In this document: positions 24,392-60,648 of the stretch, piece by piece
Layout of the letters: the number at the start of each line of letters is the position of its first letter
Numbering within the stretch: the first letter of the stretch is position 1
Assembly: GCA_030390025.1 (NCBI GenBank)
Contig: CM059432.1
Location: forward strand, 53,446,001-53,510,000
Length of the DNA stretch: 64,000 nucleotides
Source: Squalus acanthias
Taxonomy: Eukaryota
Direction of reading: 5' to 3'
The notes under the pieces: model-generated
Seen by the model: the letters and a program-made list of their open reading frames with translations, nothing else
The model's database searches: none
What the model was told of the DNA's origin: nothing
Position numbers and translations under genes: made by a program

Positions 24392-24392
24392 G

Positions 24393-26358: not shown

Positions 26359-26599
26359 TCACAAGTGTAGTCACTTGGGTGTTCTGTTGTGTTTATTTTT
26401 GAAATGCCATCCGTGAATTGTTGTGATAAAAAAATTTGATGGCTAACCATTGAAGTTGTGGCCTGTGTCATTTCGCAAATGAGACTTCCACATTGAGGGC
26501 TTAGGGCGACTTGCAATTGTCAGTATGGTGGTCAGATTGATAGGAATCCGCAGGTTCTTGGCCATTGTTGATGCTCTAGTAAGAAGGCAAAAGTGTTTG

Positions 26600-27864
26600 A
26601 TTGGGCAGGCTAAGCAAATTTGGCCAAGATGAGTGCGTCCCTTATATCCTTGATCCTTGGAGAAGTCAATGTGCTCGCGTGCTACTGCCGCTGGTTGATG
26701 CGCCTCCGCAAGCTGTTCGTTGTCGCTCTCCTCCTCCTCCTCCTCCTCATCTGAGGAGGCTATGCGATGAGCCACTTGTACCTCAGGCATCTGCAAGCCA
26801 TGATGCTGTGCCATTTTGTGAAGTGCACAGCAGACCACGACGATTCTGGAGACCTTGGCTGCTGAGTACTGCAGGGCTCCACCTGATCTATCAAGGCATC
26901 TGAATCGCATCTTCAGCAAGCCGATGGTTTATTCGATTATGGGTCTTTTGGAAATGTGGCTGGCGTTGTAGCGCTCCTCAGCTTCGTTGGATGGGCTCCT
27001 CAACGGCGTCATTAGCCACGTCTTCAGGGGCTAGCCCTTGTCTCCAAGTAGCCATCCGAAAAGCTGGTCTGGCAGACTGAAGAGCGGAGGCACACTAGAC
27101 TGCCGCAGGATGAAGGAGTCATGGCAACTGCCAGGGTACTTGGCGCAAACATGCAAAATTTCCTTCTTGTGGTCGCACACCAGCTGCACGTTGAGGGAGT
27201 GGAAGCCCTTGCGGTTGACAAAAATACCTGGATTGTGATGGGGTGCCTTAAGGGCCACATGTGTGCAGTCAATGATGCCCTGAACCCTTGGAAAGCCTGC
27301 CAGATTAGCAAATCCAATCGCACGTGCGGTTACACTTGCTTGATCCTTGGAGAAGTTAATGTAATTGTGCGCGATGGCAAAGAGGGCATCGGTTACCTGC
27401 GTGATACAAGTGTGTGCGGCCACCTGGGAGTCGCTGCTGATGTCTGCTGTTGTTCCCTGGGATGAGCCTGAAGCAAAAAAGTTGAGTGCGGTGGTGACTT
27501 TGACGGCCACTAGTAAGGGGTGTCCACCCGCTCCTCTGGGCTCCAGGTCTTGCTGCAGCATTGCGCAGATGTCAGCCATTACCTCTCGCGAAAGTCTGAG
27601 CCTCCTTTGGCACTGCTGCTCAGTCATGTTGAGATAGCTCATCCTCTGTTTGTAAAGCCTGTTTTGGGGGTATCTCCTGCGGCGACGTGCTTCCATGTGC
27701 TGGCACCTTCTGGCCTATGCAGCTTCAGGTGGGTGAGCAGCAGCTTGGCGCTCCTATTGTTGCTCCTGCTGTTGGTGCTGCTGTTGTTAAGGGTTCTGCT
27801 GCTGCCGCGTCTGGTCTTCGTCCGAATCTGATGTCCAGGAGGAAAGGAAATAAATGGTTCCCAT
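26600..27864 (-). pseudogene. Harbinger transposase, disrupted
   Basis: [18 protein letters not shown] and LLGDKG followed by a stop; frameshifts present. Confidence 0.85.
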
Positions 27865-28505
27865 GCTTCTGGTATATGCCTCAGTTGAGGAAGCGCTCAG
27901 TCAATGTGGGGAGAGGGGTTTCCCAGGAGGTCACACTGGAGATGGGTCTCAGGCTCCAAACTTCCACAACAATGAGTAGGCCTGCTAAAAGTTCCCCCAG
28001 ACCTGAGACAACAAAGTTCTGCCACCTGCAAATGATGATTGCTGAAAACTCTTTTTTAATGGTGGAGCTGCAGCTGTTAGTAAGCAATGCACTTGTGAGG
28101 CCGCCAGGATTAACTGGCGTGTTCCAGAGGAGACGTTCAGCACGGGGGAAATGTGTTAAATTCAGAAAGGCCTCTCAAAATGGGATTATGGAGGCACTTA
28201 GCTGGTTGTTAAGGGCCTTAAGGGCCTATCTCGCCTCTTGGAGGCGGGATGGAAACGGGGTCTGAAACCCCGATTTTGGGAAAATTGCTCGGAGGCGGGC
28301 TGGAGGTGTGATCGGATCCGCCCACCATTTTTTGCGATTTTAACACCTCACACGCCTCCAAACCCGCCTCCTCAGGCCTGGCAAAATCAAGCCCATTAAC
28401 TCCCTGCACCACCAGCGCATCGTGACTGCAGTATGTACCATCTACAAGATGCACTGCAGCAACTTGCCAAGGTTCCTTCGGCAGCACCTCCCAAACCCGC
28501 GACCT

Positions 28506-33577: not shown

Positions 33578-33875
33578 ACAACAACAACAACAACTTGTAT
33601 TTATACAGCACCTTTAATGTTGTAAAACGTCCCAAGGCGCTGCACAGGAGTGTTATAAGACAAAAAATTTTACACCGAGCCACACAAGGAGAAATTAGGG
33701 TAGGTGACCAAAAGCTTGGTCAAAGAGGTAGGTTTTAAGGAGCGTCTTAAAGGAGGAAAGAGAGGTAGTGAGGCGGAGAGGTTTAGGCAGGGAATTCCAG
33801 AGCTTAGGGCCGAGGCAACAGAAGGCACGGCCACCAATGGTTGAGCGATTATAATCAGGGATGCTCAAGAGGGCA
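33578..33875 (-). mobile_element. L2 LINE 3' end, target of the provirus
   Basis: (CAA)n tail on the + strand. The sequence continues seamlessly at 46699 (ATGCTCAAGAGGGCA|GAATTAGAGG). Confidence 0.8.
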
Positions 33876-35583
33876 TGTAAGGGATTCCCCTGACCCTGCG
33901 TGTCTCGTAGCCTGTGAGATTCACGCGGCTCTGTGCAGCCTGTATGTCAGTGCGGGTCTAGGCCTGGTTGCCTGTTCTGGTCTCCAGCCAGTCTGGGAAC
34001 ACTAGACACACCTGTGAGTGGTTCGAATCACTCTCCCTTACGGTTCTAGACACTGGACTTAGATGCGAGAGCAGTAATGGAGATAAAACTCATGTAGACT
34101 TGGTTTGAATGGTACGAAATGGAAAATCTTTATTGCATGATACTTAAAATTATGAAATACATGTCATAAGCACAGATTAATGACAGTACAATCTTACAAA
34201 CGGTTATATAATCGATCTTAGGGAAACGAGGAACGAACGGCACAACGTAAATAGGGGCACACATTACAAATATCCTTAATCTTTAAACCCTCCCCTATCA
34301 ATATCTATCCTAAACTAGCTTCGTAGGATCTCGAGACTCATGCTCACCACTCGTGATAACTCGGAGAAATTCCGAATAGCTGATCGGATGTTTTTCACCG
34401 CAGCACCCACGTGTCGGTCAGGAGATCTCCTGGTCCCACTTGTTTACTTGCTTCTGCTGCTCCGGCTAGTAGGCTGGACCGTCTGCTGTGGTGAAGACCT
34501 CTGTTGGTGGGTTTCACAGTTTAGTCTTGGAGCACCGTTGTCAATATCATTGATACGATGTGTTTTCCACGTTCCAACCTCCTTAGAAGTTTAAAGAGGA
34601 AAACTTCCTGGCGAGAAAACTTGGCTGATCGACCTACAGGCGCGGTCGGGATTTACTGACCGTGGCGATGGATATGGTCTTCTTCTCTTCTCCTCTCATC
34701 TCATCTCATCTCGGGCCTTTGGTTCCGCTGCCAGTTACCAACATAGGTCTTCGTTACGCGACACGAGGTAGATCCGTACGGATCAGAAAGTTCAACAGTC
34801 TTTTCAGAAGAGGCAACAGGCACGCAGAAACCCAACTACGAGTACACAGGAGCAGCCACGAGGTTACGAATCGACCAGATAAAACACAGGAGCAAGCGAG
34901 CGAACGCAGGAGCACGAACAAGAGCACGAGGCCAGAGGCAAGAGACAAGAGAGCGAATGGACGGTTCGGGGCCTGCAATTATAGTGCAAAAATCTTCCGT
35001 TTCCCGCCCAACTATAATGTCCATTCTTTTGTTTAGGGTTTGGCGCCCAAATGTCTTGTATGGGTGATCTCCGTTCTTAATGGGTTTCGGGCTACTCATG
35101 AATGTTTGAGTACCTGTTAATACTTCTCCCATTGTTAAATCGGTCGGTGTTCTCCCTGGAGGGGTTTGGGGCTTCCAAGTGTCCTGTATAACTACCTGCT
35201 AACGGCTCTCTCATCGTAGAGTCGTTGGGAGTTTACATATTAATGTCCTTTGGATGGGCCCTTGATTACTCGGTACAATGGCTTTCCTTTGTACCTGGGA
35301 GACCGATTCCAGTATCTATGTTTATACTGTAAACCCATAATGTCTCGTGTATTATCTTCACTGTGCTGAATCGTTATCGATCTTGCACAAATGTTTAATG
35401 GAACGCCATCTTGTCTGCCTGTTGAAAAGTCTAGAATGTTCTGTCACGAGGTGCGGCGGCCATTTTACAGGCTGCTTGTGTCCAATTTAAACCTGCCAGC
35501 ATTCTGCTGAAATAAAAGCTGTTTGAACGAAACTTTGTGTTTTCTCCTTATTAATCAAATCGCGATATATTGCGAATTCTACA
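33876..35583 (-). repeat. 3' LTR
   Basis: Direct repeat of 44987-46694 at offset 11111; three transitions found by eye. Confidence 0.97.
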
Positions 35584-36009: not shown

Positions 36010-38361
36010 TTACACGGTGCTCTCATCGTGCACGCGCACGTAACGTTCTCGCCACTCTCCCGTGTTTTCATGCTTGGTGAGGCACTTGTCTCTTTTACAA
36101 TGTATGACCAATAGGTACACTACAATAAACACTTGACAGACGACTAAAATGTGGGAGGCTATTCTGATCCATGAAGGCACTTCAATATTGGTGAACAGAT
36201 TCCACCACGGTGGAACCACTATGTCCAAAATGTCTGTTCCTATCTCGACAGTTTTCTGCTCTAACGTATAAAAATGTTTCTGTGATACCGCGACGGCTTT
36301 CAGAAGTTTGGTTAAATGCTCAGGGAGAGGGGGAATGAGGTATCCAAAATGTGCGACAAATCGCTGCAAGTCGGTGAAATTCTCTTTTACTGTGAGATGA
36401 ACAGTGGATGGTTCAGGGATTGGGATAATTCGCTGTTGTGCTACTTGAACTTCAGCCCTGGGTTTAAAACAGAAACTGCTGTCACTCACCGGACACCGGC
36501 TACGGTTTCCATGCTGGTAGTGTTGCGCTGCAGTGGTAACACAATATGTTCCACCCCCGATGTATGCTACCTGCGGAGGCACATGATCTTGTGCCATTGC
36601 CTCCATGGTGCAATTCATGGACTTGGCGCCAGCCGTTCTGAACCCGCACTGTGGTGTTAAAAAGGCATTCAAGTGCTGGGGGCACAGTATTATGTGTGCT
36701 CCCCTGCCACGACAACCAGAGAGATCTGTACCTGTCATCGTTTGCTCCCAGCGGATGACGTAAGGTGGAACCGCTGCATAACGAATGTGGGCTCCCCCCT
36801 GAATGACACCGATGTTCTCTACCCGATACACCGGGGCGGGCTTTGCTGTGTTGCCCAAAACCGGCATGCGTAATACTATTCCCATAATAGTATGGTTTGA
36901 ACGTCCGCAGTCCACGGGGACTGGGTAAGCTTCTGAAGCTAGCCTGAGCTGGCACGGACTTAATGCGTTCTGAAAAGGGTGGAGCGCCCGTAGGTGTTTG
37001 TTACTTATCCAGGACGGAACCAAACCTTGTTTTAAATCCTCCAAATTACTGCGGCCCTCGCCCAGTAACCACGCCCCGTAAAGCACGCACACCTCGTTCT
37101 GCGCAGCTTGATCGGATGCATTCCGATCTTCCCTGATCAGGGCATTTACCGTACGCGCATGTTTCTCCAGCTCTGCTATAATTTCCTTTAAATGGAGAGT
37201 CATGGCTTGGTCCTCGTGTAGACCTGACCCTACCACTTTATTCTCATCTGTTAGAATGTCTTTTAACTGGGTTTTTAAACCATTAATCTGGGTCTGCAGC
37301 TCCACACTGTCTAGAGCGTTGACCACAGATGTCCCTGTGTTAAAAGCAGTGAACGCATCGTTCACCAAACCCCTTCTTTGCCTCCCTACTTGATCCAAAA
37401 CTTCCTGCGGTGTGGTGTACAAACTTGCCTTATCAATTTCTGCAAAATCAAACTCGTAAAATTGTCTGAACATCTTGGTCAACAGGACCTGATACAACTG
37501 TTCCGTCTTTTTGGGGCACCACTCTGGTAACCGTACCTCAGTGAGATTTAAAATCACCGAGGCCACCGCGTAATGTACCCCCTGAAATAGTATCTGGTCT
37601 GTGGGGACCAGTACCAAACCGTTCCCGGGTCCCTTACTAGTTTTAGGGCACCCTTCTTCCTCAGCTAGAACCACCGGAATCGTGGGCGGGGCTTTGCGTG
37701 GGCGCGTAATGAGTTCAGTGGCATTTACTGGGATCGGGGAGAATGGGGCTCCGCACCCCCTGGTGCTCGCATCCCACCTCATCCCCTGTCCGTTATCCTG
37801 CCACTGATTAATAAAAAATATGGAGATGCCTTTGGGGCAAACGTACTTTGACCCCCACATACATACATAAATCCCCTCATCCGGTTCCCACCATTTGTCC
37901 CAACAGACTTTCACTTGTCCGTCTGTCCCCGTAATTGTCCGATGGGTATTATTACCCAGTCGTTCCCACTCGACCGAAGAGTTTCTCATAGTTTTGCTCA
38001 GCTTTCGCAGCCACCACCATCGGCTCAATGGGACATCCCCACTACAGGTCAAACAAATCCGTTTGCCGACGGTGACGCTGATCCTGGGTGCGATGATCCG
38101 TACTTTGGGGCACATTAAAGAAGTCTCTTTGTAGGCGAACCCCGATGTGCTGGAATACTCCGTTGAGTTCGTTCCCAGCCATCCTGGCCACCTTCCCTTG
38201 TGGAAATAGGTGCTGGTCCCCTCTGCCTTCCGTCTTCCGGTCCCATCCACCGCGATGGGGGCCGTGTCCCCGGAACATCCGAACACCACGACATCCTTGG
38301 TGTGGCCTCGATAGGCCAATCCACATCCGATTGCCACGAGCAATACTAGAATTCGTTCCAT
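36010..38361 (-). CDS. env: Envelope glycoprotein (783 aa): signal peptide, Ig-like domain, furin site, fusion peptide/heptad repeat, Cys-rich F1-like ectodomain, TM
   Basis: MERILVLLVAIGCGLA signal; RQRR|GLVNDAFTAF cleavage site (37372-37383); heptad repeat; C-terminal TM ILVVCQVFIVVYLLVI; intact ORF. Confidence 0.9.
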   Translation of the reverse strand: MERILVLLVAIGCGLAYRGHTKDVVVFGCSGDTAPIAVDGTGRRKAEGTSTYFHKGRWPGWLGTNSTEYSSTSGFAYKETSLMCPKVRIIAPRISVTVGKRICLTCSGDVPLSRWWWLRKLSKTMRNSSVEWERLGNNTHRTITGTDGQVKVCWDKWWEPDEGIYVCMWGSKYVCPKGISIFFINQWQDNGQGMRWDASTRGCGAPFSPIPVNATELITRPRKAPPTIPVVLAEEEGCPKTSKGPGNGLVLVPTDQILFQGVHYAVASVILNLTEVRLPEWCPKKTEQLYQVLLTKMFRQFYEFDFAEIDKASLYTTPQEVLDQVGRQRRGLVNDAFTAFNTGTSVVNALDSVELQTQINGLKTQLKDILTDENKVVGSGLHEDQAMTLHLKEIIAELEKHARTVNALIREDRNASDQAAQNEVCVLYGAWLLGEGRSNLEDLKQGLVPSWISNKHLRALHPFQNALSPCQLRLASEAYPVPVDCGRSNHTIMGIVLRMPVLGNTAKPAPVYRVENIGVIQGGAHIRYAAVPPYVIRWEQTMTGTDLSGCRGRGAHIILCPQHLNAFLTPQCGFRTAGAKSMNCTMEAMAQDHVPPQVAYIGGGTYCVTTAAQHYQHGNRSRCPVSDSSFCFKPRAEVQVAQQRIIPIPEPSTVHLTVKENFTDLQRFVAHFGYLIPPLPEHLTKLLKAVAVSQKHFYTLEQKTVEIGTDILDIVVPPWWNLFTNIEVPSWIRIASHILVVCQVFIVVYLLVIHCKRDKCLTKHENTGEWRERYVRVHDESTV

Positions 38362-38374
38362 CCTTCCTTGGTTC

Positions 38375-38394
38375 CTGTGATCAGATAGAATGAG
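38375..38394 (-). promoter_or_regulatory. Putative env splice acceptor
   Basis: Minus strand CTCATTCTATCTGATCACAG|G, 13 nt upstream of the signal-peptide ATG. Confidence 0.6.
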
Positions 38395-38647
38395 GTAGCC
38401 AGCCTCGCAAAAGTCTCTGGCTTTTGTGAAGGGTGAGCGGGTCCCCTGACCTCGCCTCACGTAAACTTCAACGTTTGCTGAATAGACTTCCTCTAAACCT
38501 AGCCTTAAAACTCCCATCATTTTATCGTTTTCTGTTAAAAACACTACAAACTTAGCCTTATTAAAACTACAAACTTAACCTTGAACTATAAACTTAAAAC
38601 CTTAACCTAATAACTTTACAGTGCCGCCCGTTCTCAGGGCGGCCCCT

Positions 38648-41600
38648 TTAAATTCTGAGAAGGCTGCTGCGAGCTCTTCCCGACGGTGGGAGGGCACTGA
38701 CCCTTCCCTCTGATCTGCCGCAGCCTGTTGCTGCGCTGACCCTTTCCTCTGATCTGCCGCAGCCTGTTACTGCTGCGATGTGGCCTGTCTCTACCCGGGT
38801 TATCTTAACCTGAATTTTACGCCTTGGGGCTGTCTGGGGACATGACCACATCCTCCTGGGCTGGGGTTCTCTACTAGACCTACGGGGAGTTGCTATGGGC
38901 GGGGGTTCCGTGACGGACGGACCGGGTTCCGAGACCTCCAACGGGATGACCTGGGGTTCCATCACAGTCGCCGGCTCCGCCTCCGCTGACTCCGCCTCCC
39001 TAACCTCGGGGCTGGTAGTTCGTGGCTCCGCCCTGCTCGGCCCAGCAGGCGGCCCTTCACTCGTGATCTCTGCCTCCCCTGAGGACTGGACGTTCAAAGC
39101 GGGCGGCCACATCTCTGGGAACCACATTGGTACTCTCTGTGCTCCTATAGCGGCTGGCCCTGCCTCCTCTAGCTCCTCCCTCCTGTCCTCGGGACCTGCA
39201 GCTTGTGTGTCCACCCCGTGTGGATCTCTACCTATCGGCCCCATTCCCCCCAGACCGTTCCTCAGGAACCACCCGTCATCATCACTATGCTCATCTGCAC
39301 TATCCTCAACTGACCAGGGTACCCTGGGTTCTTCGTCATCTAACCCCCAACTCCAGAAAAACGCTGCATGATCGTCCGGGATGTCCCTTCCCCTGATGCA
39401 AGCTGCTACGCCTGCCTGTGTGCCTTGTGGTCCTACCTGGGGCTGTGTTTTCCCATTGGCGGGATTTACCCCTGTAGTTTTCCCCTGCGCACCCGGCTGG
39501 TACAGTTTGCATTGGTTTATGTGGAACCACTTAGTGCGCCGAGGCACTTTTACGGCGTAAACCATGGGACTCGCCTTGTCTACAATGTTGTAGGGTCCCA
39601 TATACAGTGGTTCCAGACTCCCTACTCTGGCGTAGTTTCTGACCATGACCTGGTCTCCTACTTCCCACTCCCGCGTTTTGCGGGGTTCCAGCAACAAGCG
39701 ATTGCCCTGATGCTGCCTTCCCATGTTCCCAGCCGCCTGCTCATAAACTTGCTTCAGGCGCTCCAAGAGATTTTGGGCGAACTTGTCCCTGCTGATCTCT
39801 TGAAGCTGACCCTCAGTGAGCACCGGGGCTAGCACATGGGTGGGGGTTCGCATGAGCCTGCCGGTCATTACCTCGTGCGGGGAGTACCCCGTACTTTTTG
39901 ACTGACTGGCCCGGACCCCCATGAGGACTAAAGGCAGAACTTCCGCCCATTTTTGGGGCGAGTTCCTAGTCTCTTTCCTCAATTTCTCCTTCAGGGTCCG
40001 GTTCATACGTTCAACAATCCCGGATGACTGGGGATTGTGCGCTACGTGCCACTTCCCTTCAATGCCCAAAAGCATGAGGGTGTTCTGCATCACCTGGCCG
40101 GTGAAATGACTCCCTTGGTCTGACTCCACGAAACGGGGGAGTCCCCACCGCGAGAACACTTCCCGGACCAAGATTTTTGCTGTACCCAGTGCCGTAGCGG
40201 TTCGACAAGGGAAGGCTTCCACCCACTTGGAAAACACATCTACCAGGACGAGGCAGTATTTATAACCTCCCTGGGTGGTGGGCAGGGGTCCTATATAGTC
40301 GATCTGTATCGACTGCCATGGTCCCTCTACCCTTCTTACGTGTCCCATGGGCACCTTCCTTTTCTGGGGGTCTGGGTTGTTTGCAGCGCACACAAGACAG
40401 TTTGCACAGAACTCGCGGACTTGTTCCCTGAGCCCCGGCCACCATCCCGCTTGCTCTACCCGTTGCCAGGCAACCTCGGGCCCGGGGTGCCCTGCCCCTG
40501 GTCCCTCGTGAGCCAACTGGAGGAATTCCCTCCTGTGCTGCTGCGGCACAACCCACTGCTCCCCGCGGAACAGCATGCCTTCCTTAACTGAGAGGGTTGC
40601 CGTACTGTACGGACCTTCTACCTGCCTCCCCTCAGCAATCGTTTTTAGGACTGCTTTTAGGGCGGGATCCTGGGCTTGGACGGTCTTAAGGTCTAGGGGC
40701 AATGCTACCCTGGTGTTCCCGGTATTCCCGTCCCCGCCTCGGACCGCTGCTATGGGTCCGGTCCTATAGGGGTTCCAGAAAGTGCCGTCGCGGGCACCCT
40801 CCCTGGCTAGCGCATCCGCCTGCCGGTTGCCCTCCCCACGGGGCTCTGTGGAGGAGTGAGCTTTCACCTTATGGATGAAAATCTCCCCTTCCTCCCCTAC
40901 TGCTGCTGCTAAGATCTTTTCCAGCAAGGGCTTCACCGTTAAAGGTCGCCCGTCCGCGGAGGTGTATCCGCGGCGGGACCAAATGGCCAGGTATTCCGTA
41001 CACGAATTGCAGGTGAACATACTGTCCGAGCAAATCGTGTATGGGGTTGGGAAAATGTCTGGGTGGGTCACCACGTACACCACGGCAGACAGCTCAGCCT
41101 GCTGCGCGCTCATGGTGCTAGGGAGCTTGATCGCCAGGGCAAGGTCTGCCGCAGGGTCATAAACTCCACACCCTGTGAGTCGCTCGCCAGCAGACACTGT
41201 GCTAGACCCATCAACATAAATCTCGCGCCCAGTGGGATGTATCCCGGCCCGTAAACCTATGTTGACGTCCCACACCCCTTCCACCGAACACCGGTGGGCT
41301 GTACCGGGGTATACCAAATTGGCCGCAAGCCTGGGCTCGCAAAGACCTTTTACTCTAAGATCCAACTGGGAGAGAAGAAGGGTCCAACGCGCAATGCGTG
41401 CGCTGCTTACGGTCCCGTCTTTAATCCTCCCATCCAGAAGCATCTTAGTTGGTGTGTGATGTGTGAGGAGAGTGATGGGAGAGAGCCCTGTGAAGATCGC
41501 TGATCTTTTCACAGCCCAATGCGTGGCTAAAAGGTGCCTTTCGCAATTGGAGAAACTTCTCTCCACATCCGTTAATACCCTGGATGAATAGACAACCGGC

Positions 41601-43171
41601 CTCAGCTTGCCGTGACGCTCTTGGAGCAGCACGGCGCTTAAGCTGTCTCCGCTGGCAGCTACCTCCAGGAAAAACTCCTTCCCCCCATCTATGGCCCCTA
41701 AGGCTGGCACGGTCTGCAGATCCCTTTTTAACTTCTCGAAGGCTGCTTGGCAGCCCTCGTCCCAAAGCCACTCCGCCCCCTTATGGAGGAGTCGGAGGAG
41801 CGGCGCCGCTGTGGCCGCATAATCTTCGATAAAATCCCTGCAGTAACCGGTCAGTCCCAAGAAGGACCTCACACCCCTTACGTTGTTGGGAATCGGTAAT
41901 TCTTGCACCGACTCCCTCCTTGCTTTGTCTATGGCTCTTTCCCCAGCGCGTAGGGTCAGTCCCAGGAATTTTACTTCCTGCTGACCGATACGTGCTTTCT
42001 TTGGGTTTACTTTGAAACCCTTTCTCGCTAACAGCTCCAATAACTCGTCCAGTAGTGGTCCATGCTCCTCCCTTGAGTCCGTAAATAGGAGCAAATCATC
42101 CACATACTGTACTATCTGATTGGGCTGACTAAACTCCTTTAAACTTCCTGCCATACACTGATGAAAAATACTGGGGCTATTGTGGAAACCCTGTGGCAAA
42201 CAGTTCCACGTGTACTGTTGCCCTTTAAACGTAAAGGCAAACTTGTACTGGTCCTCTCGCCGCAGCGGGATGGACCAAAAACCGTTCGAGATATCCAGCA
42301 CCGTGAACGTGGTCGCGGACGCTGGGATGCTCCCTATTAGGTCAGCAACTGCTGCTACTGTGGGCGCGCAGGCGGGAATGTTACTGTTAAGGACTCTGTA
42401 GTCCACCGTGGCTCTCCACGAATTATCCGGCTTCCTAACCGGCCATAATGGGGAGTTCACGTGTGTGGCTATCGGCCTCAACACGCCCTGCTGCACCAAG
42501 GAAGACATTGCTGTCTCCATATCGGGTTCGGCTTCTTTGGGGAAGTTATACTGCTTTTGGGGTCGGGTCATGGGGTCCCCATCTACGCTGACCTCAAACC
42601 CGACCACCCTCCCACAATCGTGCTTGTGGGTTGCAAACGCGTGCATATTATCTGACACGTACGTTTGCATGTCCGTTGGGACATCTGCGACCATAAGCCT
42701 GAGGTCGTAGCCTCCGGATGGCTGTACGGTACACAGGACCCCTGTTTCTTCCTCCCCCGGAATCACCATTACCTCGCCTTTTTCACCCTTAGCCCCCCAG
42801 AGACAGTGATTTCTGAGGTCCACGAGGATCCCGTGTCCCGCTAGGAGATCGGACCCGAGAATACCTCTTCCACCCCCCTTTTGCCATGCCATCAGTATAC
42901 ACTTCCACTTAAGGCGAAGTGTTCCTAAACGAATGGATAGCGGGAGGGAAAACGTGCCAGCCTGTTCTTTCCCTGTGAACCCTGCCAGCGTGAATGGGAC
43001 CTTGGTAGATAGCGGCGAGTCAAAAGGGTTATCCGTATGGATTATGGTGCAAGAAGCTCCCGTGTCCAACAAATAACTGCCCTTCTGTTTCTCTACCTCC
43101 ATCTCCACCACAGGTCGCCTCCACGCATCATAGCTGAGCGGACACAGGTAGACGGGCTGTGCTGGTTCTAG
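38648..43171 (-). CDS. pol: Pol: protease, RT, tether RNase H, RNase H, integrase (HHCC, DDE, GPY/F) and C-terminal extension
   Basis: LLDTGAS; LPQG...YVDD; YVDGS/AEL/SDS/GNRQAD; H-H-C-C zinc finger, IDYIG, SDQG, VERMN, GPY. Intact frame continuous with the gag stop. Confidence 0.95.
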   Translation of the reverse strand, partial: LEPAQPVYLCPLSYDAWRRPVVEMEVEKQKGSYLLDTGASCTIIHTDNPFDSPLSTKVPFTLAGFTGKEQAGTFSLPLSIRLGTLRLKWKCILMAWQKGGGRGILGSDLLAGHGILVDLRNHCLWGAKGEKGEVMVIPGEEETGVLCTVQPSGGYDLRLMVADVPTDMQTYVSDNMHAFATHKHDCGRVVGFEVSVDGDPMTRPQKQYNFPKEAEPDMETAMSSLVQQGVLRPIATHVNSPLWPVRKPDNSWRATVDYRVLNSNIPACAPTVAAVADLIGSIPASATTFTVLDISNGFWSIPLRREDQYKFAFTFKGQQYTWNCLPQGFHNSPSIFHQCMAGSLKEFSQPNQIVQYVDDLLLFTDSREEHGPLLDELLELLARKGFKVNPKKARIGQQEVKFLGLTLRAGERAIDKARRESVQELPIPNNVRGVRSFLGLTGYCRDFIEDYAATAAPLLRLLHKGAEWLWDEGCQAAFEKLKRDLQTVPALGAIDGGKEFFLEVAASGDSLSAVLLQERHGKLRPVVYSSRVLTDVERSFSNCERHLLATHWAVKRSAIFTGLSPITLLTHHTPTKMLLDGRIKDGTVSSARIARWTLLLSQLDLRVKGLCEPRLAANLVYPGTAHRCSVEGVWDVNIGLRAGIHPTGREIYVDGSSTVSAGERLTGCGVYDPAADLALAIKLPSTMSAQQAELSAVVYVVTHPDIFPTPYTICSDSMFTCNSCTEYLAIWSRRGYTSADGRPLTVKPLLEKILAAAVGEEGEIFIHKVKAHSSTEPRGEGNRQADALAREGARDGTFWNPYRTGPIAAVRGGDGNTGNTRVALPLDLKTVQAQDPALKAVLKTIAEGRQVEGPYSTATLSVKEGMLFRGEQWVVPQQHRREFLQLAHEGPGAGHPGPEVAWQRVEQAGWWPGLREQVREFCANCLVCAANNPDPQKRKVPMGHVRRVEGPWQSIQIDYIGPLPTTQGGYKYCLVLVDVFSKWVEAFPCRTATALGTAKILVREVFSRWGLPRFVESDQGSHFTGQVMQNTLMLLGIEGKWHVAHNPQSSGIVERMNRTLKEKLRKETRNSPQKWAEVLPLVLMGVRASQSKSTGYSPHEVMTGRLMRTPTHVLAPVLTEGQLQEISRDKFAQNLLERLKQVYEQAAGNMGRQHQGNRLLLEPRKTREWEVGDQVMVRNYARVGSLEPLYMGPYNIVDKASPMVYAVKVPRRTKWFHINQCKLYQPGAQGKTTGVNPANGKTQPQVGPQGTQAGVAACIRGRDIPDDHAAFFWSWGLDDEEPRVPWSVEDSADEHSDDDGWFLRNGLGGMGPIGRDPHGVDTQAAGPEDRREELEEAGPAAIGAQRVPMWFPEMWPPALNVQSSGEAEITSEGPPAGPSRAEPRTTSPEVREAESAEAEPATVMEPQVIPLEVSEPGPSVTEPPPIATPRRSSREPQPRRMWSCPQTAPRRKIQVKITRVETGHIAAVTGCGRSEERVSAATGCGRSEGRVSALPPSGRARSSLLRI

Positions 43172-44982
43172 TCATGGGGCACTATTAGACGGTCCTGCGG
43201 CACCTACGGGGCCGGTTGCGACCGCCACCTGTCCACGCGCATTCAAAACCATCTTGCGCATGGCTCCTAACACTGCTTCGAGGTCGTCGGGAGGGGTGGG
43301 TGCCTTTGCTTCCTTAGGCGGGACAGGCGCCTGGGCTCGGACCGCGGGATTTTTATCCTTGGAATCCTTCCAAGGGTTCCTGCAGTGCTTGCGCCAGTGC
43401 CCTGTCTTCCCACACCCGTAACAGGCATTACTTGCCTGTGGGGCGCGATTACCCTCCTGATGCCACTCTCTTTGAGCCGGGGCTGCGGGTCGTACCTCAT
43501 GTACTCTTCCCTTAAAGGGACGTGTCGTCATACCCCTTATGTTACGATAACCTAACGTGAGTCGATTCAAGACCGACTCTTCCGTAAGGTTGAGGTCATT
43601 GGGATCGAACCAGGCTTTTGCCTGCTCTCTAACGGCTGGTAAACTGTTGGCTATTATGCACCTAAGCCAATGAATTAGAGCGGCGCCTTCCACATCTTCG
43701 CGCTCGGGCGCACCTAGACAGCTGCGCTCATATACTGGCCACAGCCTGTCGGCAAAAACCTTCGGGGGTTCTCCCTCCATCTGCACTGTCTGTCCCACTC
43801 TAGCAAACGGACCTCCGTCGTTCGCCCCCACTACTTCGAGGACCTCATTTTTCAATTCCTCATAACTTTTGTTTCCCCTCTTGCTCTCGCCTGAGAGACA
43901 CTGAAGGACCGAGCTATCTAACGAGAACAGCAGCATTTTTGCTGTCTCCCCATCATCGCAGCCGTTAATGGCTGCGGCTTGCTCAACTTCCCTGAAATGT
44001 ACGGAAGGGTCGTCTATCTCGGTCAGCTTCCTTACGTGGTTTATCATAGCTCTCAGCTGATGTGAACTGTGAGGCAACACCAGCTGTCCGAGGAGATCCC
44101 CCGGTTCTTCCCCACCGTTTCTGCTTGGGCCCCTTTTAATCCCCGTTACTGGATACAACGATCCCTTTTCTACCTCCTTTTTAATGGGCTCTTTTGTTTC
44201 TTCCGTTGCTTCCTCCCTAACCCAGGTTTCTGAATAGCTGGGTGGCGCGGAGGGCGCAGTGGCTACTACTTCTTCTGCTTTACTTGGTGGGGAATTTCTA
44301 AATCTCTCATTTACTAGCGGCTGGTGCGCCGACGGATTGATAAGGCACACCATGCCGTTCGCATTATTCACGGCCTTTTTGAGGCTCTCTATCTCCCTTT
44401 GGCAGGCGCTATGGTCGGCTCCCTGAAACTTATCCTCAAGGGCCAACTTATACGCCGACCTAACCCCCATTAAGCTCTCTTCTTGAGTTCTTATCTGGGC
44501 AGCTTGGCGGTTACATCTTTCCTTTAACCTACTCTCATTCAATTTTGCTTCAGTGACCTGGCACTCGAGATACTCTATCCTTGTTTTAAGGTAACTGGAG
44601 ACTTCCTGGCTTTCCTGGTGTAACTCATTTAAATTCTTAATGAGCACCTCCCCTCAGAAACCTTCTCCTCCATTTCTCCCTCTAAATGGCTGACACGAGC
44701 TGTTAGCGCTGTAATGGTCTGGTTTGAAATCTGAACCTGCCTTTTGTAGCACATAAGCCAGACTGCTTTCTCAACTGCCTTTTTATGTTCCTTACTATCA
44801 GTCCACCTTTCAGCTGCCTCTAGTGGGCTCTTATCCGCTAACAATTCACTTATCCACTTCTTAGTTAGATTAACCTTTCCAAACACATAATCCGCTATCT
44901 TTTCCTGCATAACATTTCGTACAGTCATTCCAAAATCTAACACACTACCCTCTCGCTGCCAGTGTCCTGCCGCGGTCGCCAT
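43172..44982 (-). CDS. gag: Gag with N-terminal coiled coil, PSAPPSY late domain and one CCHC zinc knuckle; single 1-nt frameshift at ~44650
   Basis: ORFs 44629-44982 and 43172-44647; CYGCGKTGHWRKHC at 43382-43423; homology to the gag at 13665. Confidence 0.9.
44964..44981 (-). promoter_or_regulatory. Primer-binding site, tRNA-Arg(TCG) type
   Basis: TGGCGACCGCGGCAGGAC is complementary to the vertebrate tRNA-Arg(TCG) 3' end GTCCTGCCGCGGTCG-CCA, as I recall that sequence. Confidence 0.85.
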
Positions 44983-44986
44983 TTTC

Positions 44987-46694
44987 TGTAAGGGATTCCC
45001 CTGACCCTGCGTGTCTCGTAGCCTGTGAGATTCACGCGGCTCTGTGCAGCCTGTATGTCAGTGCGGGTCTAGGCCTGGTTGCCTGTTCTGGTCTCCAGCC
45101 AGTCTGGGAACACTAGACACACCTGTGAGTGGTTCGAATCACTCTCCCTTACGGTTCTAGACACTGGACTTAGATGCGAGAGCAGTAATGGAGATAAAAC
45201 TCATGTAGACTTGGTTTGAATGGTACGAAATGGAAAATCTTTATTGCATGATACTTAAAATTATGAAATACATGTCATAAGCACAGATTAATGACAGTAC
45301 AATCTTACAAACGGTTATATAATCGATCTTAGGGAAACGAGGAACGAACGGCACAACGTAAATAGGGGCACACATTACAAATATCCTTAATCTTTAAACC
45401 CTCCCCTATCAATATCTATCCTAAACTAGCTTCGTAGGATCTCGAGACTCATGCTCACCACTCGTGATAACTCGGAGAAATTCCGAATAGCTGATCGGAT
45501 GTTTTTCACCGCAGCACCCACGTGTCGGTCAGGAGATCTCCTGGTCCCACTTGTTTACTTGCTTCTGCTGCTCCGGCTAGTAGGCTGGACCGTCTGCTGT
45601 GGTGAAGACCTCTGTTGGTGGGTTTCACAGTTTAGTCTTGGAGCACCGTTGTCAATATCATTGATACGATGTGTTTTCCACGTTCCAACCTCCTTAGAAG
45701 TTTAAAGAGGAAAACTTCCTGGCGAGAAAACTTGGCTGATCGACCTACAGGCGCGGTCGGGATTTACTGACCGTGGCGATGGATATGGTCTTCTTCTCTT
45801 CTCCTCTCATCTCATCTCATCTCGGGCCTTTGGTTCCGCTGCCAGTTACCAACATAGGTCTTCGTTACGCGACACGAGGTAGATCCGTACGGATCAGAAA
45901 GTTCAACAGTCTTTTCAGAAGAGGCAACAGGCACGCAGAAACCCAACTACGAGTACACAGGAGCAGCTACGAGGTTACGAATCGACCGGATAAAACACAG
46001 GAGCAAGCGAGCGAACGCAGGAGCACGAACAAGAGCACGAGGCCAGAGGCAAGAGACAAGAGAGCGAATGGACGGTTCGGGGCCTGCAATTATAGTGCAA
46101 AAATCTTCCGTTTCCCGCCCAACTATAATGTCCATTCTTTTGTTTAGGGTTTGGCGCCCAAATGTCTTGTATGGGTGATCTCCGTTCTTAATGGGTTTCG
46201 GGCTACTCATGAATGTTTGAGTACCTGTTAATACTTCTCCCATTGTTAAATCGGTCGGTGTTCTCCCTGGAGGGGTTTGGGGCTTCCAAGTGTCCTGTAT
46301 AACTACCTGCTAACGGCTCTCTCATCGTAGAGTCGTTGGGAGTTTACATATTAATGTCCTTTGGATGGGCCCTTGATTACTCGGTACAATGGCTTTCCTT
46401 TGTACCTGGGAGACCGATTCCAGTATCTATGTTTATACTGTAAACCCATAATGTCTCGTGTATTATCCTCACTGTGCTGAATCGTTATCGATCTTGCACA
46501 AATGTTTAATGGAACGCCATCTTGTCTGCCTGTTGAAAAGTCTAGAATGTTCTGTCACGAGGTGCGGCGGCCATTTTACAGGCTGCTTGTGTCCAATTTA
46601 AACCTGCCAGCATTCTGCTGAAATAAAAGCTGTTTGAACGAAACTTTGTGTTTTCTCCTTATTAATCAAATCGCGATATATTGCGAATTCTACA
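44987..46694 (-). repeat. 5' LTR (TATA ~46094-46089, splice donor 45458, AATAAA 45245-45240)
   Basis: Direct repeat of 33876-35583; TGTAG...TTACA termini on the minus strand. Confidence 0.97.
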
Positions 46695-47235
46695 GGCAGA
46701 ATTAGAGGAGCGCAGATATCTCGGGGGATTGTGGGGCTGAAGGAGATTAAAGAGATAGGAAGGGGCGAGGCCATGGAGGGATTTGAAAACAAGGATGAGA
46801 ATTTTGAAATCGAGGCGCTACTTAACCGGGAGCCAATGTAGGTCAGCGAGCACAGGAGTGATGGGTGAACGGGACTTGGTGTGAGTTAGGACATGGGCAG
46901 CCAAGTTTTGGATGACCTCAAGTTTATGTAGGGTAGAATGTGAGAGGCCAGCCAGGAGTGCATTGAAATAGTCAAGTCTAGAGGTAACAAAGGCATGGAT
47001 GAGGGTTTCAGCAGCGGATGAGCTGAGGCAAGGGCGGAGATGGGCGATGTTACGGTGGTGGAAATAGGCGGTCTTTGTTATGCTGCGGATATCTGGTCGG
47101 TAGCTCATCTCAGGGTTAAATATGACACCAAGTTTGTGAACAGTATGGTTCAGCCTCAGACAGATGTTAGGGAGAGGGATGGAGTCAGAGGCTAGGGAAT
47201 GGAGTTTGTGCCGGGGATCAAAAACAATAGCTTTG

Positions 47236-54549: not shown

Positions 54550-57215
54550 GAGCTGCCACTCACTCTAAGGATATCTGCATGCTTTCTATGCCATGTCACC
54601 AGCACCTCACGATGTGGACTCCTCCTCTACATTTGTCACCATGGTGCAGAATCTGCTGGGCACATCATACAATGACTGCGACAGTCTATCATGCTCTGAA
54701 AGCATTCTTTTGAATGCTGGGCCATTTAGATTTGGGTCCACTGCCTCCTCTTCTTCTACCTCCTGTCCTTCCTGTTTCTGCTCTCCCATGGTCAGTGATT
54801 TCACCTCAGTGGTCCCCCTATACTCTCAATCTATATCCCACTGAGTGGATGAAATTGGACTGATGCATGCCAAGTCTTGTGATGGCATACCTGATAAGGT
54901 GCTTCTTGTAGGTTCCATGGAGGATGTGATCTCTGATTTATCTGCCATTTCTGTGCATACATATAAAGGGACAATCATTAATAGTTAAGTGAATGTGTAC
55001 TCCTGGCTTCATGTCACTGTCATCATCACAGGAAGGTCCCGAAAGTTGAGATTTTGAAACACGTTGACCGGAATAGAGAGGGAGGAAAGGAATAGAGCAA
55101 TGAACTGTCAGTGGGAACATACCCACCTGCTTCACAACCACTTGCCACCTCTCTCAAACAGTGTCACTTCCTGAAATGTAACAAATCCTGCTCCAATAGC
55201 TGTGGCCTGAATTCTGTTAAATGCCTCCTTCTCCTGCAGAGATTTATCAGACACCCATGATTTCTGCAGCATCATGACCCCTACAAAATTAGCAGTGCAT
55301 TTCCCCTTTCCATTCCAAAGTAGTTGGATTTACTGTGAAGATGCTGTGTTAGGTGCTGCAAATGTCACATTGCTCACCCAGGCTCAGGCGTCCCTGTTCC
55401 CTCTGCAGATTCTCCCACAGCCCCAAGTTGCTCAAACCATCTTAAGCAGCCATAGGTCTTCAAGACCTACAGGAGCCCATCAATGTCTTGTGTCTACATG
55501 ACTACTAACCAAAGGATGCTTTAGTGCTCACTCGTGTACTATCCACAACAAGCAAATTAGCCCTAAGAGGAAATTAGGATGTAGAAAAATGACTTCAGGT
55601 TCAGCGCTTTTCCAGTGTGCTGCCCATGGACCCCAGAAAAATTAGTCTTTCATTCTTTAGGGTTGATGGGCATTCCACCTCTCCTCCCGAATAATGCCCC
55701 AGAAAATTCTGATTTTTGATATTTCATTTGGTGCATTTTCTGACATTTTATGGACTGTGATTCTGCCTTTCAATTCCTGGAAGGGTTACAAGTACTTTAA
55801 AAATTAGAATGATAGTGCTTGGAAAGATTTCAATTCAACTTTAACAGGGTCCAGTTCCTTTCTTTGGGAATCTAATGCAAACTATGAACTGAAGCTTTTT
55901 ACACCAGCACCCCCTTCAACAATTCCAATCAGCAGTGCATTCTACACTCACAAGACAAAACTGGCTATCACATCTACCCCTGTCCCAGACCCCGTGGCAG
56001 TCCAGAGACAGGTGGGGCCCTACCCGGATCTCTGATTTAAACAAACAGCTTTTATTTTAAAGTAGCTTTAGGGGTGATAAAGGTGAATCAATAAATATCA
56101 TTGAAGCAAAATCTTAGAACTGAGTTCCGATAAAGATTCACACTCAAATATTTGCTTGTCTTAGATGTTGATCAAATGCAATGCATTTCAAATACTTTCT
56201 GATTTTAAAACCAAAATAGACAGGAGGCTGGAATTTAGTGCTAACGGTAAGAGCAAGTACTAAACGTATTTGTAGGACATACTGCTATTTTAATAACAGA
56301 GCGTTTCATGATTCACTATTCAAAATAAATGGCCAATCTGATTGGTTCTGACAACCTCCAGCATTGCCCTCCAACTGATCTGGTTGGTTAACTACTACCA
56401 ATCCCAGTGAAAGCCACTTTGATGAAGTATGAAGTAGGAATAAGGTATAAGGTTGAGTACAGCTGTGGAATCATACTCCAGTATTATTCACTCTCTTCAG
56501 CTGAAAAACAACAATACCTTGCACTTGTATAGCACTCCTCACATGGAGAACAAATTTTTAGAACATCAAACAGGAGAGAAAAGAGAACAACAGGGTTTGG
56601 CACGGTCAAAGAAAAGGGCTTTAATAGAGGCTTTTCAAAGCAGGGTGGAAGGTGACAAGGCAATGAGATTTTGGAAGAGAGTTCCAGAGGACAGAGACAT
56701 AGGCCTGCGATTTTATCGGCACTGAGAGGGCGGGTTTGGAGGCGGGTCAAGGGTCAAAATCGTTTTGATTGACGGCGGGTTGCGATCCCGCAGGCAACAC
56801 GCCTCCACACCACCCGATCGGTCCCGCCACCAAGCGGTGGGAGAGGTTCTTGAGGCAGTTAACAGCTTGTTAACTGCCTGGATAAGCTTATTTTAACAGA
56901 GATTTCCGATTTTATAACATTTTCTGCATGTTCCAGGCCGTTCCCAAACCATGTCAGCTGATTGTGCCGGGTTCAGCAAGTGCCTGCCTTCTTGACAGCT
57001 GCAGCTCCAGCATAAAAACAGAGCTCTAACATGGCTGACTTACAGATGACAGAATTTTGTTTTTGCAGGTCTTGGAAAACTTTTTGCAGGTCTACTGATC
57101 TTGTAAGTGATGAAGCTGAGATCCATCTCCACTGTGACCTCCTGGGAAAACCCTCTCCCCACATTGACTGAGCGCTTATAACTTCTATTCCTCAACTGAC
57201 ATAGCTACCAGCAGC

Positions 57216-58409
57216 ATGGGAACCATTTATACCCTGTCATCCTGGTCCTTAGATTCGGAGGAAGAGCAGCAGAACCAGGCACAACAGCAGCACCAACAAC
57301 AGGAGCGCCAACCTCCTCCTCACCCACCTGATGCTGCACAGGGCAGAGGGCGTCAGCACAGGGCTGCACCTCGCTGCAGGAGATACCCCCAACACAGGGT
57401 TTACAGGCCGAGGATGAGCATCCTCAACATGACTGAGCAGCAGTGCCAAAGGAGGCTGAGACTTTCGCAAGAGGTAGTCGCTGACATCTGCGCAATGCTG
57501 CACCAACACCTGGAGCCCAGAGGAGCGGGTGGACACCCCTTACCAGTGGCTGTCAAAGTCATCACCGCCCTCAATTTTTTTGCTTCAGGGTCCTTCCAGG
57601 GATCATCAGCAGACATCAGCAGCATCTCCCAGTCGGCCGCACACACTTGCAATATGCAGGTTACCGATGCCCTCTTTGCAAAGGCGCACAATTGCATTCA
57701 CTTCTCCACAGATGAGGCAAGTGTAACCGCGCGTGTGGTTGGCTTTGCAAATATGGCAGGCTTGCCAAGGGTGCAGGGCGTCGTAGACTGCACACATGTG
57801 CCCATTAGGGCACCCCATCACAACCCAGCTGTATTTGTCAACCGCAAGGGCTTCCACTCCCTTAATGTCCAGCTGGTGTGTAACCACAGGAAGATTATCA
57901 TGCATGTTTGCGCCAAGTACCCTGGCAGTTGCCATGACTCTTTCATCCTGCGGCAGTCCACTGTGCCTCCGCTCTTCAATCCGCCAACCCAACTTTCCGG
58001 ATGGCTACTTGGAGACAAGGGCTATCCCCTGAAGGCGTGGCTGATGACGCCATTGAGGAGCCCATCGAACGAAGCAGAGGAGCGCTACAATGCGAGCCAC
58101 ATTTCCACCAGAGCCATCATCGAGCAAACCATCGGCTTGCTCAAAATGCGATTCAGATGCCTTGACAGATCAGGTGGAGCCCTACAGTACTCAGCAGCCA
58201 GTGTCTCCAGAATCATCGTGGTCTGCTGTGCACTGCACAACATGGCACAGCATCATGGCTTGCAGCTGCCTGAGGAACAAGTGGCTCAGTGCATAGCCTC
58301 CTCAGATGATGAGGAGGATGAGGAGGAGGATCAGCCAGCTCCAGCAGCACGCGAGCACATTGCTGCTCGTGATGCAAGGGATGCACTAATCTTTGCCAGA
58401 TTCGCTTAG
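57216..58409 (+). CDS. Harbinger DDE transposase, intact (397 aa)
   Basis: [15 protein letters not shown] and IIEQTIG give an intact catalytic triad. Confidence 0.92.
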
Positions 58410-58685
58410 GTAGACGAATCAAACACATGTGGCTGGCACCTTCTTATCACACCATACACAATGTACAAGAACCTGTGGGTTCCTATCACTCTCACCACCA
58501 TCATTACAAATGCAAGTCACCCTGAGCCCTCAATGTGCAACTTCCATTTCCCAGAACACAGAGGCCAGACCTTCAACTGTTTGCCATCACTTTTGTTTTA
58601 AACATGCACCAAAAGGATGCCAATGCCAAATATTAAACACAACAAAAGACAACAGAACAGAACACCCAAGTGACTACCCTTGAGA

Positions 58686-60648
58686 CTAATTGTGCTTTAT
58701 CGTCCTTTTACATGTGCTTCTACGTGGTGCTTCCCCTGTGGCTTCAGCAGATGTGGAGGCACCTTGCTCACTTTCATGCTGCTCCTGCTTTGACACCTTT
58801 GGCAGGCGTCCTTTGGGTTTGCAAGCCTGTGAGGGCTCGGCAACAGTTTGCTCCTCCTGCGGCTGTCCAGGGGCTGTGTCGCCCATCTCAGTTGGATGAG
58901 GACTCTGGTGGGGCTCTGACTGAGGGCTACGCAGTGGCATGGGAGTGTGAGCGCTTAGAGAGGAGCCCCCACTTCCTTGTTGCCTGCCACCAACATCCCT
59001 CTCATGGGTCAGCCCCACTTCAGTTCCAGCAAATGGCTGGACAGCACCTTGCTGCACATCAGGGGGGCCATGAGGACCCGTATCTGCACTGGCAGTCCTC
59101 CTCAAAAGGACTTCCATGAAGCTCTGGTTTCTCTGCATAATAGCTGCCCATCGCTCCTCCAGAGATGTCAATCTATTCTGAACATTCACCATGTTTTCCA
59201 GACTCTGGCAACTTATTTCCTCCATGACCGTAGCCATCCTTTCCTCTACCGTAGCCATCCTTTCAACGGAGGTAGCCATCCTTTCCACGGAGGTAGCCAT
59301 CCTTTCCATGGTGGTGCGTTCATGCGCCATTGCCTCCACAAAGGCACTGCTCATGTTAGACATGGACTCCTCCATCTTCTCCACACTCGCAGTAACTTTG
59401 GATGCAAAATCTGCCAGAGACTCCTGCACTTGTTCCTGGAGTTCCAGCACCGCTCTCTTTCTGGATGGCCCCAGAGGCACAGGGCCCACATGCAGCTGAG
59501 CAGAGCTGGGAGCGCCTTGTGGCCTCCGACAAGGACTCTCCACTGCTGTCCCTGTCTCCACCATCTTCTGATGCTCACTTGTGAGCTGTGATACACCAGG
59601 TGACAACACTACTCTATCTCGCGAAGGTCCCACCGAGGTGTACGTATCTGCGCTGGTGCTGCGTGCGCTTAATTCTGCTGACGCTGCATCCTCAGAGGTT
59701 GCAGCTTCCTCTGAGGAGTCTTCAGGCTCTTCCTCCTGGACAGTAGGGAGGGGGGCTCTCGATGGTCCTGTGGGGGAGTAAAGGAAAGAGTTAGACATGT
59801 GATAATAACGTAGCATGCACATCGAATTGTGCAGATGATTATAAGTCAATCTGTATGAGCATCAGATGCCGTATCAGTCACTCATGCAATGTAAATGAGA
59901 GAGATGCAAATCTATTCTGTCACCAGCTTGCTCTGCTGCACCCGTCTGACCATCCCCCACTTTCGAGGGCAGCCTCCTCAGCGTTGGTCAAATGGGCAAT
60001 TGAAGGTGGCCCTCCTCCTGCCCTCCTGTCCTAGCCCTCTCCCTCTTTTTGTGGGCTTTCTTTTCCTGCAATGAGGGACACAAGTGGAGTTTGAGCGAGA
60101 ATGCTGGATTCAGTGTAGAGAATCCATAGCATAGATGCTTAGAAGGAAACAAAGATGGAGTGAGGTGCCAATACCAAGGGCCCTCCCTGTGCATTGTTAG
60201 TCGTTGTCATTGCATAACAGTGATAGCGAGTGTGAGGGCAGCATAGTCGAATAGTGAAGTGATTGTGTACATAGAGAGAGAGGGATGGTTAAGGGTGCAA
60301 TAGATGTAAGGGTAAAGTGGGATATGCAGGAGTAGGTTGACAAGGCAGAGTGCTGCTGATGAGAGGAGATGGGGAGCAGATTGAGGGTAAGTGTGATGTT
60401 ATACTCACTTTTCCTGAGCATACCAGGTCATTAAACCTTTTCCTGCACTGGACCCAGGAGCGAGAACACAAAGACCTGGAGCTGACCTCCTCAGCAATTT
60501 GCAGCCAGGCTGCTTTGCTTTGCTGAGGAGGCTTCCTCTGTCCAGAGGATGGGAATAATACCTTCTTGCGCCCTCTTACTCCATCCACAAGAGCATGGAG
60601 GGAGTCATCATCAAAGCGGGGCGAGGCCTTGGCTCTTGAAGCAGTCAT
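58686..60648 (-). pseudogene. Harbinger Myb/SANT(MADF)-like partner gene, exons 60648-60409, 60065-59924, 59767-58686
   Basis: PRF...WLQIA...WVQCRKRFNDL motif and GT-AG junctions. Compared with the 24916 copy, exon 2 has compensating indels with an intervening stop. Confidence 0.75.

Follow-up and report, generated by a model that had tools for sequence, protein, structure and literature searches.

The gag-pol junction of a basal, probably snakehead-like endogenous retrovirus in Squalus acanthias: a candidate UGA-CUAG readthrough stop followed by a long predicted hairpin

The minus strand of the 64,000-nucleotide (nt) stretch of Squalus acanthias DNA considered here (GCA_030390025.1, contig CM059432.1, positions 53,446,001 to 53,510,000; hereafter the window) carries a 12.8-kb provirus (12,820 bases, running 46694 -> 33876), in which the primer site, gag, pol and env follow each other in this order and only one stop codon separates two long open frames, gag of 493 codons and pol of 1507 codons. 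The question raised by this locus is how the enzymes encoded by pol are made when a TGA stands between them and gag. A first-pass annotation had proposed that Gag-Pol is expressed by readthrough of a UGA-CUAG signal, and this proposal stands as the best reading of the layout, although readthrough itself is inferred. Judging from the sequence, programmed stop-codon readthrough is very probably the route to Gag-Pol. Ribosomes on the unspliced RNA would mostly terminate at the UGA and release Gag, whereas a few per cent of them would insert an amino acid and carry on into protease, reverse transcriptase (RT) and integrase; a UGA is read in such cases by a near-cognate Trp, Cys or Arg tRNA. The CUAG would supply a basal leakiness, which a predicted hairpin of ~215 nt, beginning 4-10 bases past the stop, would probably raise. 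This hairpin was missed in the first-pass annotation and, on the folding model, may matter as much as the CUAG.

The translation of positions 43234-43028 (minus strand) reads ...GPSNSAP*LEPAQPVYLCPLSYDAWRRPVVEMEVEKQKGSYLLDTGAS, where the asterisk is the stop codon. The end of gag is GCC CCA TGA, followed by CTA GAA; the codons and peptides in the first-pass annotation are correct, the strand, which it left unstated, being minus, and the frame past the TGA is indeed open into the protease for 1507 codons (38648-43171). Since the UGA is followed by CUA, the junction has the sequence of the type II signal of Beier and Grimm, which is defined as UGA followed by CUA or CGG (PMC13517186). The description of UGA-CUAG as an established leaky context is also borne out by vertebrate genes, where readthrough of 1.55% for LDHB and 2.91% for MDH1 is reported (PMC4359377; for the context see also PMC4132726). 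The 7-mer TGACTAG shows no enrichment in the window (3 matches vs 7.1 expected), and CTAG, which is found 33 times per 12,820 provirus bases, follows only 3 of the 2364 TGA triplets on the two strands. Due to this, CTAG would seldom follow the one stop of gag by chance, the prior of this being ~0.1-0.3%, or higher if contexts such as CGG also count.

The first-pass annotation had suggested that the RNA downstream of the stop be folded, and when this is done a long unbranched hairpin is predicted, which extends from +7 (firmly from +13) to +219/+225, counted from the U of UGA. In five folding contexts, which reach up to 800 nt, six core pairs that were tested have a probability of 0.96-1.0, and the outermost four-pair helix is unstable (0.05-0.78). 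With 83 pairs, this is the longest unbranched stem in 91 folding windows over the 9.4-kb internal region, where the next independent stem has 58. Synonymous-codon controls did not reach it in any case (0/150), and against codon controls the region ranks first among 20 windows of pol (z -4.6). A parallel is provided by the nsP3-nsP4 junctions of alphaviruses (Sindbis virus, SINV, UGA-CUA; o'nyong-nyong virus, ONNV, UGA-CUAG; Venezuelan equine encephalitis virus, VEEV, UGA-CGG), where type II readthrough controls the polymerase and an extended stem-loop lies 9-16 nt from the stop (PMC13517186). However, alphaviruses are an unrelated virus family, and their elements, as described there, measure 126-177 nt and combine a short basal helix with a large loop, whereas a near-continuous rod is predicted here. 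In alphaviruses such stem-loops raise readthrough and, by this likeness, the hairpin is slightly more apt to be a readthrough stimulator than to be something else.

The role of the hairpin is separate from the occurrence of readthrough, as it can also be envisaged that readthrough depends on the CUAG alone and that the hairpin has another job. Hairpins of retroviral RNA can shield unspliced RNA from nonsense-mediated decay or serve in packaging and dimerisation, as in Rous sarcoma and foamy viruses. This alternative, which concerns the hairpin only and is compatible with readthrough of the UGA, we consider to have somewhat less than an even chance. The position of the hairpin does not favour it, as the start at +7/+13 fits the known stimulators (+9 to +16 in alphaviruses, +12 in Moloney murine leukaemia virus, MoMLV; PMC13517186), and neither does its rank as the longest stem of the internal region. 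However, UGA-CUAG functions without structure in mammalian genes (PMC4132726), for UGACUA a structure is described as required under certain conditions only, with no stimulation in Plautia stali intestine virus (PSIV) (PMC13517186), and other long stems exist in pol (58 pairs at 40048-40216). Several results obtained here also count against a stimulator. Against dinucleotide shuffles, the 200 nt that follow the stop come second among 31 windows (z -3.6 vs -3.8), which indicates structure in other parts of pol as well; taken alone, the first 80 nt after the stop are ordinary (z -1.4). The same region of the snakehead retrovirus (SnRV) shows no excess structure, as 21 of 100 controls fold equally well. 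The variant data are derived from contigs of 4 of 24 listed sequencing runs, whose RNA status was guessed, and 40 of 489 variants are listed. Four of the listed family variants fall inside the hairpin; one is unpaired and three, at paired sites, keep the pair, but these three are one-sided and the chance of all of them keeping pairs is ~17%, so that the variants are to be read as consistent with the hairpin.

Recoding of other kinds, viz. adenosine-to-inosine (A-to-I) editing of the UGA to a Trp-reading codon via a duplex, selenocysteine insertion or frameshifting, is very improbable. An imperfect duplex of 215 nt would be a plausible ADAR substrate, but the stop lies outside the predicted stem, and minus-strand A>G-type changes make up no larger a share of all changes in the runs guessed to be RNA than they do in the run of DNA. 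The four weak Rfam matches in the provirus include no selenocysteine insertion sequence (SECIS) and none of them is at the junction. Further, no slippery heptamer is present near the end of gag and the two alternative frames run into a stop within 20 codons. A search for H-type pseudoknots gave 29 combinatorial candidates without energy or control, which compete with the high-probability rod, and they were not used. Two other long predicted stems in pol (minus strand), at 40048-40216 with 58 pairs and at 42363-42497 with 46 pairs, are possibly packaging or export elements.

If pol is made without readthrough, either from a spliced mRNA or from its own start codon in the style of foamy viruses, then the layout and the CUAG would be incidental. 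The start of the protease bears directly on this point. The first AUG in the pol frame is codon 24 after the stop (43102-43100) and it lies downstream of the first protease strand, whose codons 16-23 align without a gap with residues 5-12 of the protease of human immunodeficiency virus type 1 (HIV-1; best whole-sequence E 7.6e-06). The P-L...W/G-R-P-x-V motif of this strand recurs in relatives, and the Pfam match to the retroviral protease (RVP) starts at codon 17 (E 0.00084, just under the cut-off). A protease begun at codon 24 would be without its conserved first strand, which favours readthrough over separate initiation. The context of this AUG is good, with G at both -3 and +4, and the Met is kept at this position in the relative P0001; the records of several relatives begin with M 25-34 residues ahead of the protease motif, although gene callers write M for GTG and TTG too. 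A weak acceptor-like AG at +40 (13/18 pyrimidines) would suit a spliced pol, and the lineage is basal and near foamy-related groups. However, 0 of the 8 joints listed have minus-strand GT-AG ends, a weak point since they are from contigs of guessed RNA status, and separate expression of pol leaves both the rare CUAG and the position of the hairpin unexplained. Overall, expression of this kind is improbable.

Information for relatives of this element bears on whether the stop is particular to the copy examined. When the junction, read through as X, was searched against 1.84 billion protein representatives, 106 proteins were returned. Compared by BLAST, 10 of these are similar to the gag half and 95 to the pol half, and 0 match both. 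The C-termini of two full-length close Gags, P0124 (619 amino acids (aa)) and P0125 (628 aa), fall no more than one codon from the TGA position; these Gags are, respectively, 52% and 42% identical to this element over the C-terminal half and 46% and 34% over the main gag frame, and P0124 has a Gln aligned with the TGA, its own end being one codon further. Among the 18 Pol matches that were fetched, most start at the protease or just before it; for P0004, P0007 and P0022 the gene models are longer, with putative joins. No longer fused forms of Gag were found at E 0.001 among 8000 candidates, which is weak evidence. The search of viral contigs for family DNA across the junction gave nothing with a single protein, and with an alignment it gave only L001, which by RT identity with the published sequence is SnRV; of 130 metagenome loci, 80 were kept and none of them is a family member (best-segment identity 24-36%). 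In SnRV, 625 open gag codons are followed by UAG-GGC and then by pol, with the catalytic Asp 32 codons past the stop, vs 36 here. By eye, gag and pol of the elephant-shark endogenous retrovirus (ERV) CmiERV, the first such element in the supplement of PMC4422223, are separated by an in-frame UGA-CAU. Because the Gag relatives, SnRV and the elephant-shark ERV stop at an equivalent place, the position of the stop, as far as these sequences go, is family-wide and old.

It could also be considered that the TGA is a nonsense mutation or an assembly error in a normally fused gag-pol frame, and gag of this copy does carry a frame break. The gag gene lies in two overlapping frames, which meet near 44,630-44,655, a split on which the first-pass annotation is silent. 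The family contigs vary in length at this place in all 4 runs compared, and the break seems to be confined to this copy or to have arisen in its assembly; as gag is broken upstream, this copy is unlikely to make whole Gag or Gag-Pol. The Gln of P0124 and the titles of 8 of 24 lokiretrovirus entries, which give a fused (smc-)gag-pol gene (PMC7947760), point in the same direction. However, two divergent Gags end at the TGA position, the junction is not spanned by any of the 106 matches, SnRV and the elephant-shark ERV stop at the same place too, and a random lesion would seldom fall just before CTAG, so that a lesion at this codon is hardly credible. On the other side of the balance, P0124 and P0125 might in principle end where they do because the records stop there, and gag holds at least one lesion, real or of assembly, so that further lesions are possible. 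Also, no variant is present at 43160-43180 among the 40 of 489 listed, and the junction is not crossed by any long piece listed; 20 of the 24 listed runs contain the stretch and none is on record as RNA.

The lineage to which the element belongs was determined from an RT tree of 30 rows, drawn from 199 RT segments, which contains no foamy virus row and one Loki-like row (P0029, recognised by eye against published RTs). The RT groups inside Retroviridae (98/99), with a tether and RNase H, and outside the class I gamma/epsilon group (100/99); the stop is UGA and not the UAG-G of that group. It is placed in a basal fork with SnRV, to which it is 43% identical over 256 aa, and a clade of 10 rows with SnRV is neither recovered nor rejected (p of the approximately unbiased test, p-AU, 0.17). 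The nearest RT group consists of amphibian and coelacanth Pol proteins annotated as 'NYNRIN-like' (80/85), and a quick tree of 72 rows agrees with that of 30 rows. The look of env had at first suggested a lokiretrovirus, but grouping with P0029 is rejected (p-AU 0.006). By its RT sequence, the element is a basal, probably snakehead-like retrovirus and not a lokiretrovirus. The 'NYNRIN-like' frog and coelacanth database proteins P0002-P0005 are full retroviral Pol proteins of the same basal clade.

In Tca2, a fungal copia retrotransposon, and in MoMLV, the Gag:Gag-Pol ratio is determined by an in-frame stop that is leaky, as is proposed for this element. However, in MoMLV the signal is UAG-G with a 50-nt pseudoknot (PMC13517186). 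SnRV resembles this element in having gag and pol in a single frame with one stop ~30 codons ahead of the protease motif, a coiled-coil Gag and a primer site matching at 13/18 bases, but its stop is UAG-GGC (type III-like), it has no comparable hairpin, no pseudoknot was found in it (PMC3835772), and no likeness of env was detected in the 260 aa of L001 env that were compared. The single-frame layout is treated as common to gammaretroviruses, epsilonretroviruses and SnRV (PMC1224870). The 2026 review PMC13517186 lists UAG for all three. The contrast drawn in the first-pass annotation, viz. that gamma- and epsilonretroviruses read through UAG and that a different solution is found here, was overstated, because UGA at gag-pol junctions is already in print for SSSV (UGAAGA), ZFERV (UGACGA) and the cane-toad RMERV (UGAAGU) (PMC13517186) and for XtERV-S (PMC8278194), and UGA-CUA is present in seven published lokiretrovirus sequences. 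These four retroviruses are like this element in having an in-frame UGA between gag and pol, with readthrough deduced from it, and in the portions of these sources that were available neither CUA(G) nor a structure downstream of the stop is listed for any of them, the context of XtERV-S being given only in a figure; the UGA-CAU of CmiERV (PMC4422223) is also unlike the context here. According to the same review, readthrough in epsilonretroviruses is not experimentally verified and its cis-elements are unclear, and the examples it names for UGACUA are chikungunya virus (CHIKV), SINV and PSIV.

Lokiretroviruses (Wang and Han, PMC7947760) are a clade whose RT is sister to that of all other retroviruses and whose Env resembles the F protein of paramyxo- and pneumoviruses (PF00523). 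They are like this element in their dual RNase H and in having Pol relatives named NYNRIN-like, whereas this element differs from them in its RT (36% identical to the Loki-like RT), in a short, insert-free protease-RT linker and in a single CCHC knuckle. In the available supplement of PMC7947760, 4 of the 17 places reading TGACTAG are gag ends in the protease frame (Ofa, Cne, Pyo and Sau), and three other gag ends read TGA-CTAA (Bsp, Dcl and Lro), although the published Bsp sequence slips frame further down. By eye, an in-frame UGA-CUA(G/A) is thus present at the gag end of at least 7 of the 24 published lokiretroviruses; besides these 7, 8 are titled as fused gag-pol and 9 have junctions outside the count. 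Readthrough is unmentioned there (0 occurrences in the supplement) and the gag ends are annotated as separate genes. A retroviral UGA-CUAG was not found described in the literature searched, to which subscription journals, Repbase entries and figures did not belong, and the portions covered of PMC5210030, PMC9040795, PMC12440569, PMC10435555 and PMC8310308 contain nothing on it. Two degraded class I-type ERV fragments from metagenome contigs (L002 and L004, about 2370 and 2160) show gag-UGA-CGG, the other type II context, 27 codons ahead of the protease motif, and three Gypsy-type loci have a long gag frame with a single in-frame stop (L024, UAG-GAA; L025, UGA-CGG; L036, UAG-CAU) and the protease 45-47 codons later.

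The features of the provirus are summarised in Table 1. The order long terminal repeat (LTR), primer-binding site (PBS), gag, pro, pol, env, polypurine tract (PPT) and LTR, together with a target-site duplication, is complete, as in an endogenous retrovirus, and because the LTRs differ at only 3/1708 bases and the duplication is present, the insertion is very young; the pol and env frames are open in it. The primer-binding site is probably that of tRNA-Arg(UCG). The gag AUG overlaps this site (44964-44982, minus strand), and P0125 begins with six identical residues.

Table 1. Positions in the window of the junction elements and of the other parts of the provirus
Feature	Positions	Strand	Remarks
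In-frame TGA, the only stop between gag and pol and a candidate for readthrough	43172..43174	minus	Translation
CTAG directly after the stop, leaky context of type II and vertebrate genes	43168..43171	minus	
Unbranched RNA hairpin, predicted	42950..43168	minus	79-83 pairs; folding only
Initial strand of the protease (AWRRPVVE; codons 16-23 past the TGA)	43103..43126	minus	HIV-1 protease alignment
5' LTR	44987..46694	minus	1708 nt, TG...CA ends
3' LTR	33876..35583	minus	3/1708 bases different from 5' LTR
Target-site duplication, 4 bp	46695-46698 and 33872-33875		Flanks the provirus
Primer-binding site	44964..44981	minus	13/18 bases match the site in L001
N-terminal gag piece, other frame	44629..44982	minus	41-44% match to N-termini of P0124 and P0125
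Main gag frame, 493 codons stop-to-stop	43172..44653	minus	Coiled coil, capsid-like part, one CCHC knuckle
Pol frame, 1507 codons	38648..43171	minus	Protease, RT (YVDD), tether, RNase H, integrase, long low-complexity tail
Env frame	36010..38361	minus	783 aa from signal-peptide Met; open from 38574 (854 codons, 36010-38574)

The CCHC knuckle of gag is at about 43379-43426 (E 0.071), and in the pol frame, in addition to the RVP match noted above, Pfam identifies RT, two RNase H-type domains and integrase. The tail of pol (38648-39480, minus strand) comprises ~280 residues after the integrase and is acidic and proline-rich with short repeats; it is not found in the amphibian relatives fetched, and shorter tails are present in SnRV and P0017. 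For env, three matches in skate and sawshark records were obtained among 8000 candidates, which by themselves would point to a cartilaginous fish as the probable host, and no Pfam or PDB match was found; a single-sequence structure model has a predicted local distance difference test (pLDDT) score of 33.8, too low for use, and the only Atlas lead is under 0.9. Env may consist of an immunoglobulin (Ig)-like N-terminal domain (Pfam Ig_3, E 0.64) followed by an F-type fusion body. Outside the provirus, two inverted copies of an interspersed repeat (24390-27966 and 57102-60591, 73-89% alike) are probably long interspersed nuclear elements (LINE), and further LINE-like fragments fill the window.

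The readthrough strategy proposed here is textbook and versions of it with UGA are already known; what is new is the combination, in a retrovirus, of UGA-CUAG with a long predicted 3' hairpin, together with the UGA-CUA context at lokiretrovirus junctions, which in the material of PMC7947760 that was available goes unremarked. The same signal design is seen across retroviruses, alphaviruses and vertebrate genes, and no new mechanism is revealed by it. Retroviral readthrough has been dissected essentially in gammaretroviruses only, where it relies on UAG and a pseudoknot, and a recently inserted element in which UGA-CUAG is accompanied by a sharply defined predicted hairpin offers a small, testable cassette for the control of the Gag:Pol ratio outside this group. 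If the hairpin acts as proposed, then the ~215-nt rod would exceed in length all local stimulators of animal viruses that are given in the available part of PMC13517186. That basal retroviruses and lokiretroviruses share an overlooked cassette of the alphavirus type for Gag-Pol, consisting of UGA-CUA(G) and a long 3' hairpin, is a speculative suggestion which we regard as unlikely; if it is true, then UGA-C readthrough would be ancestral to the retrovirus/lokiretrovirus lineage and the UAG-pseudoknot of gammaretroviruses would be a later replacement. Taken with the lokiretrovirus junctions, the element bears on how Pol was expressed in the earliest retroviruses.

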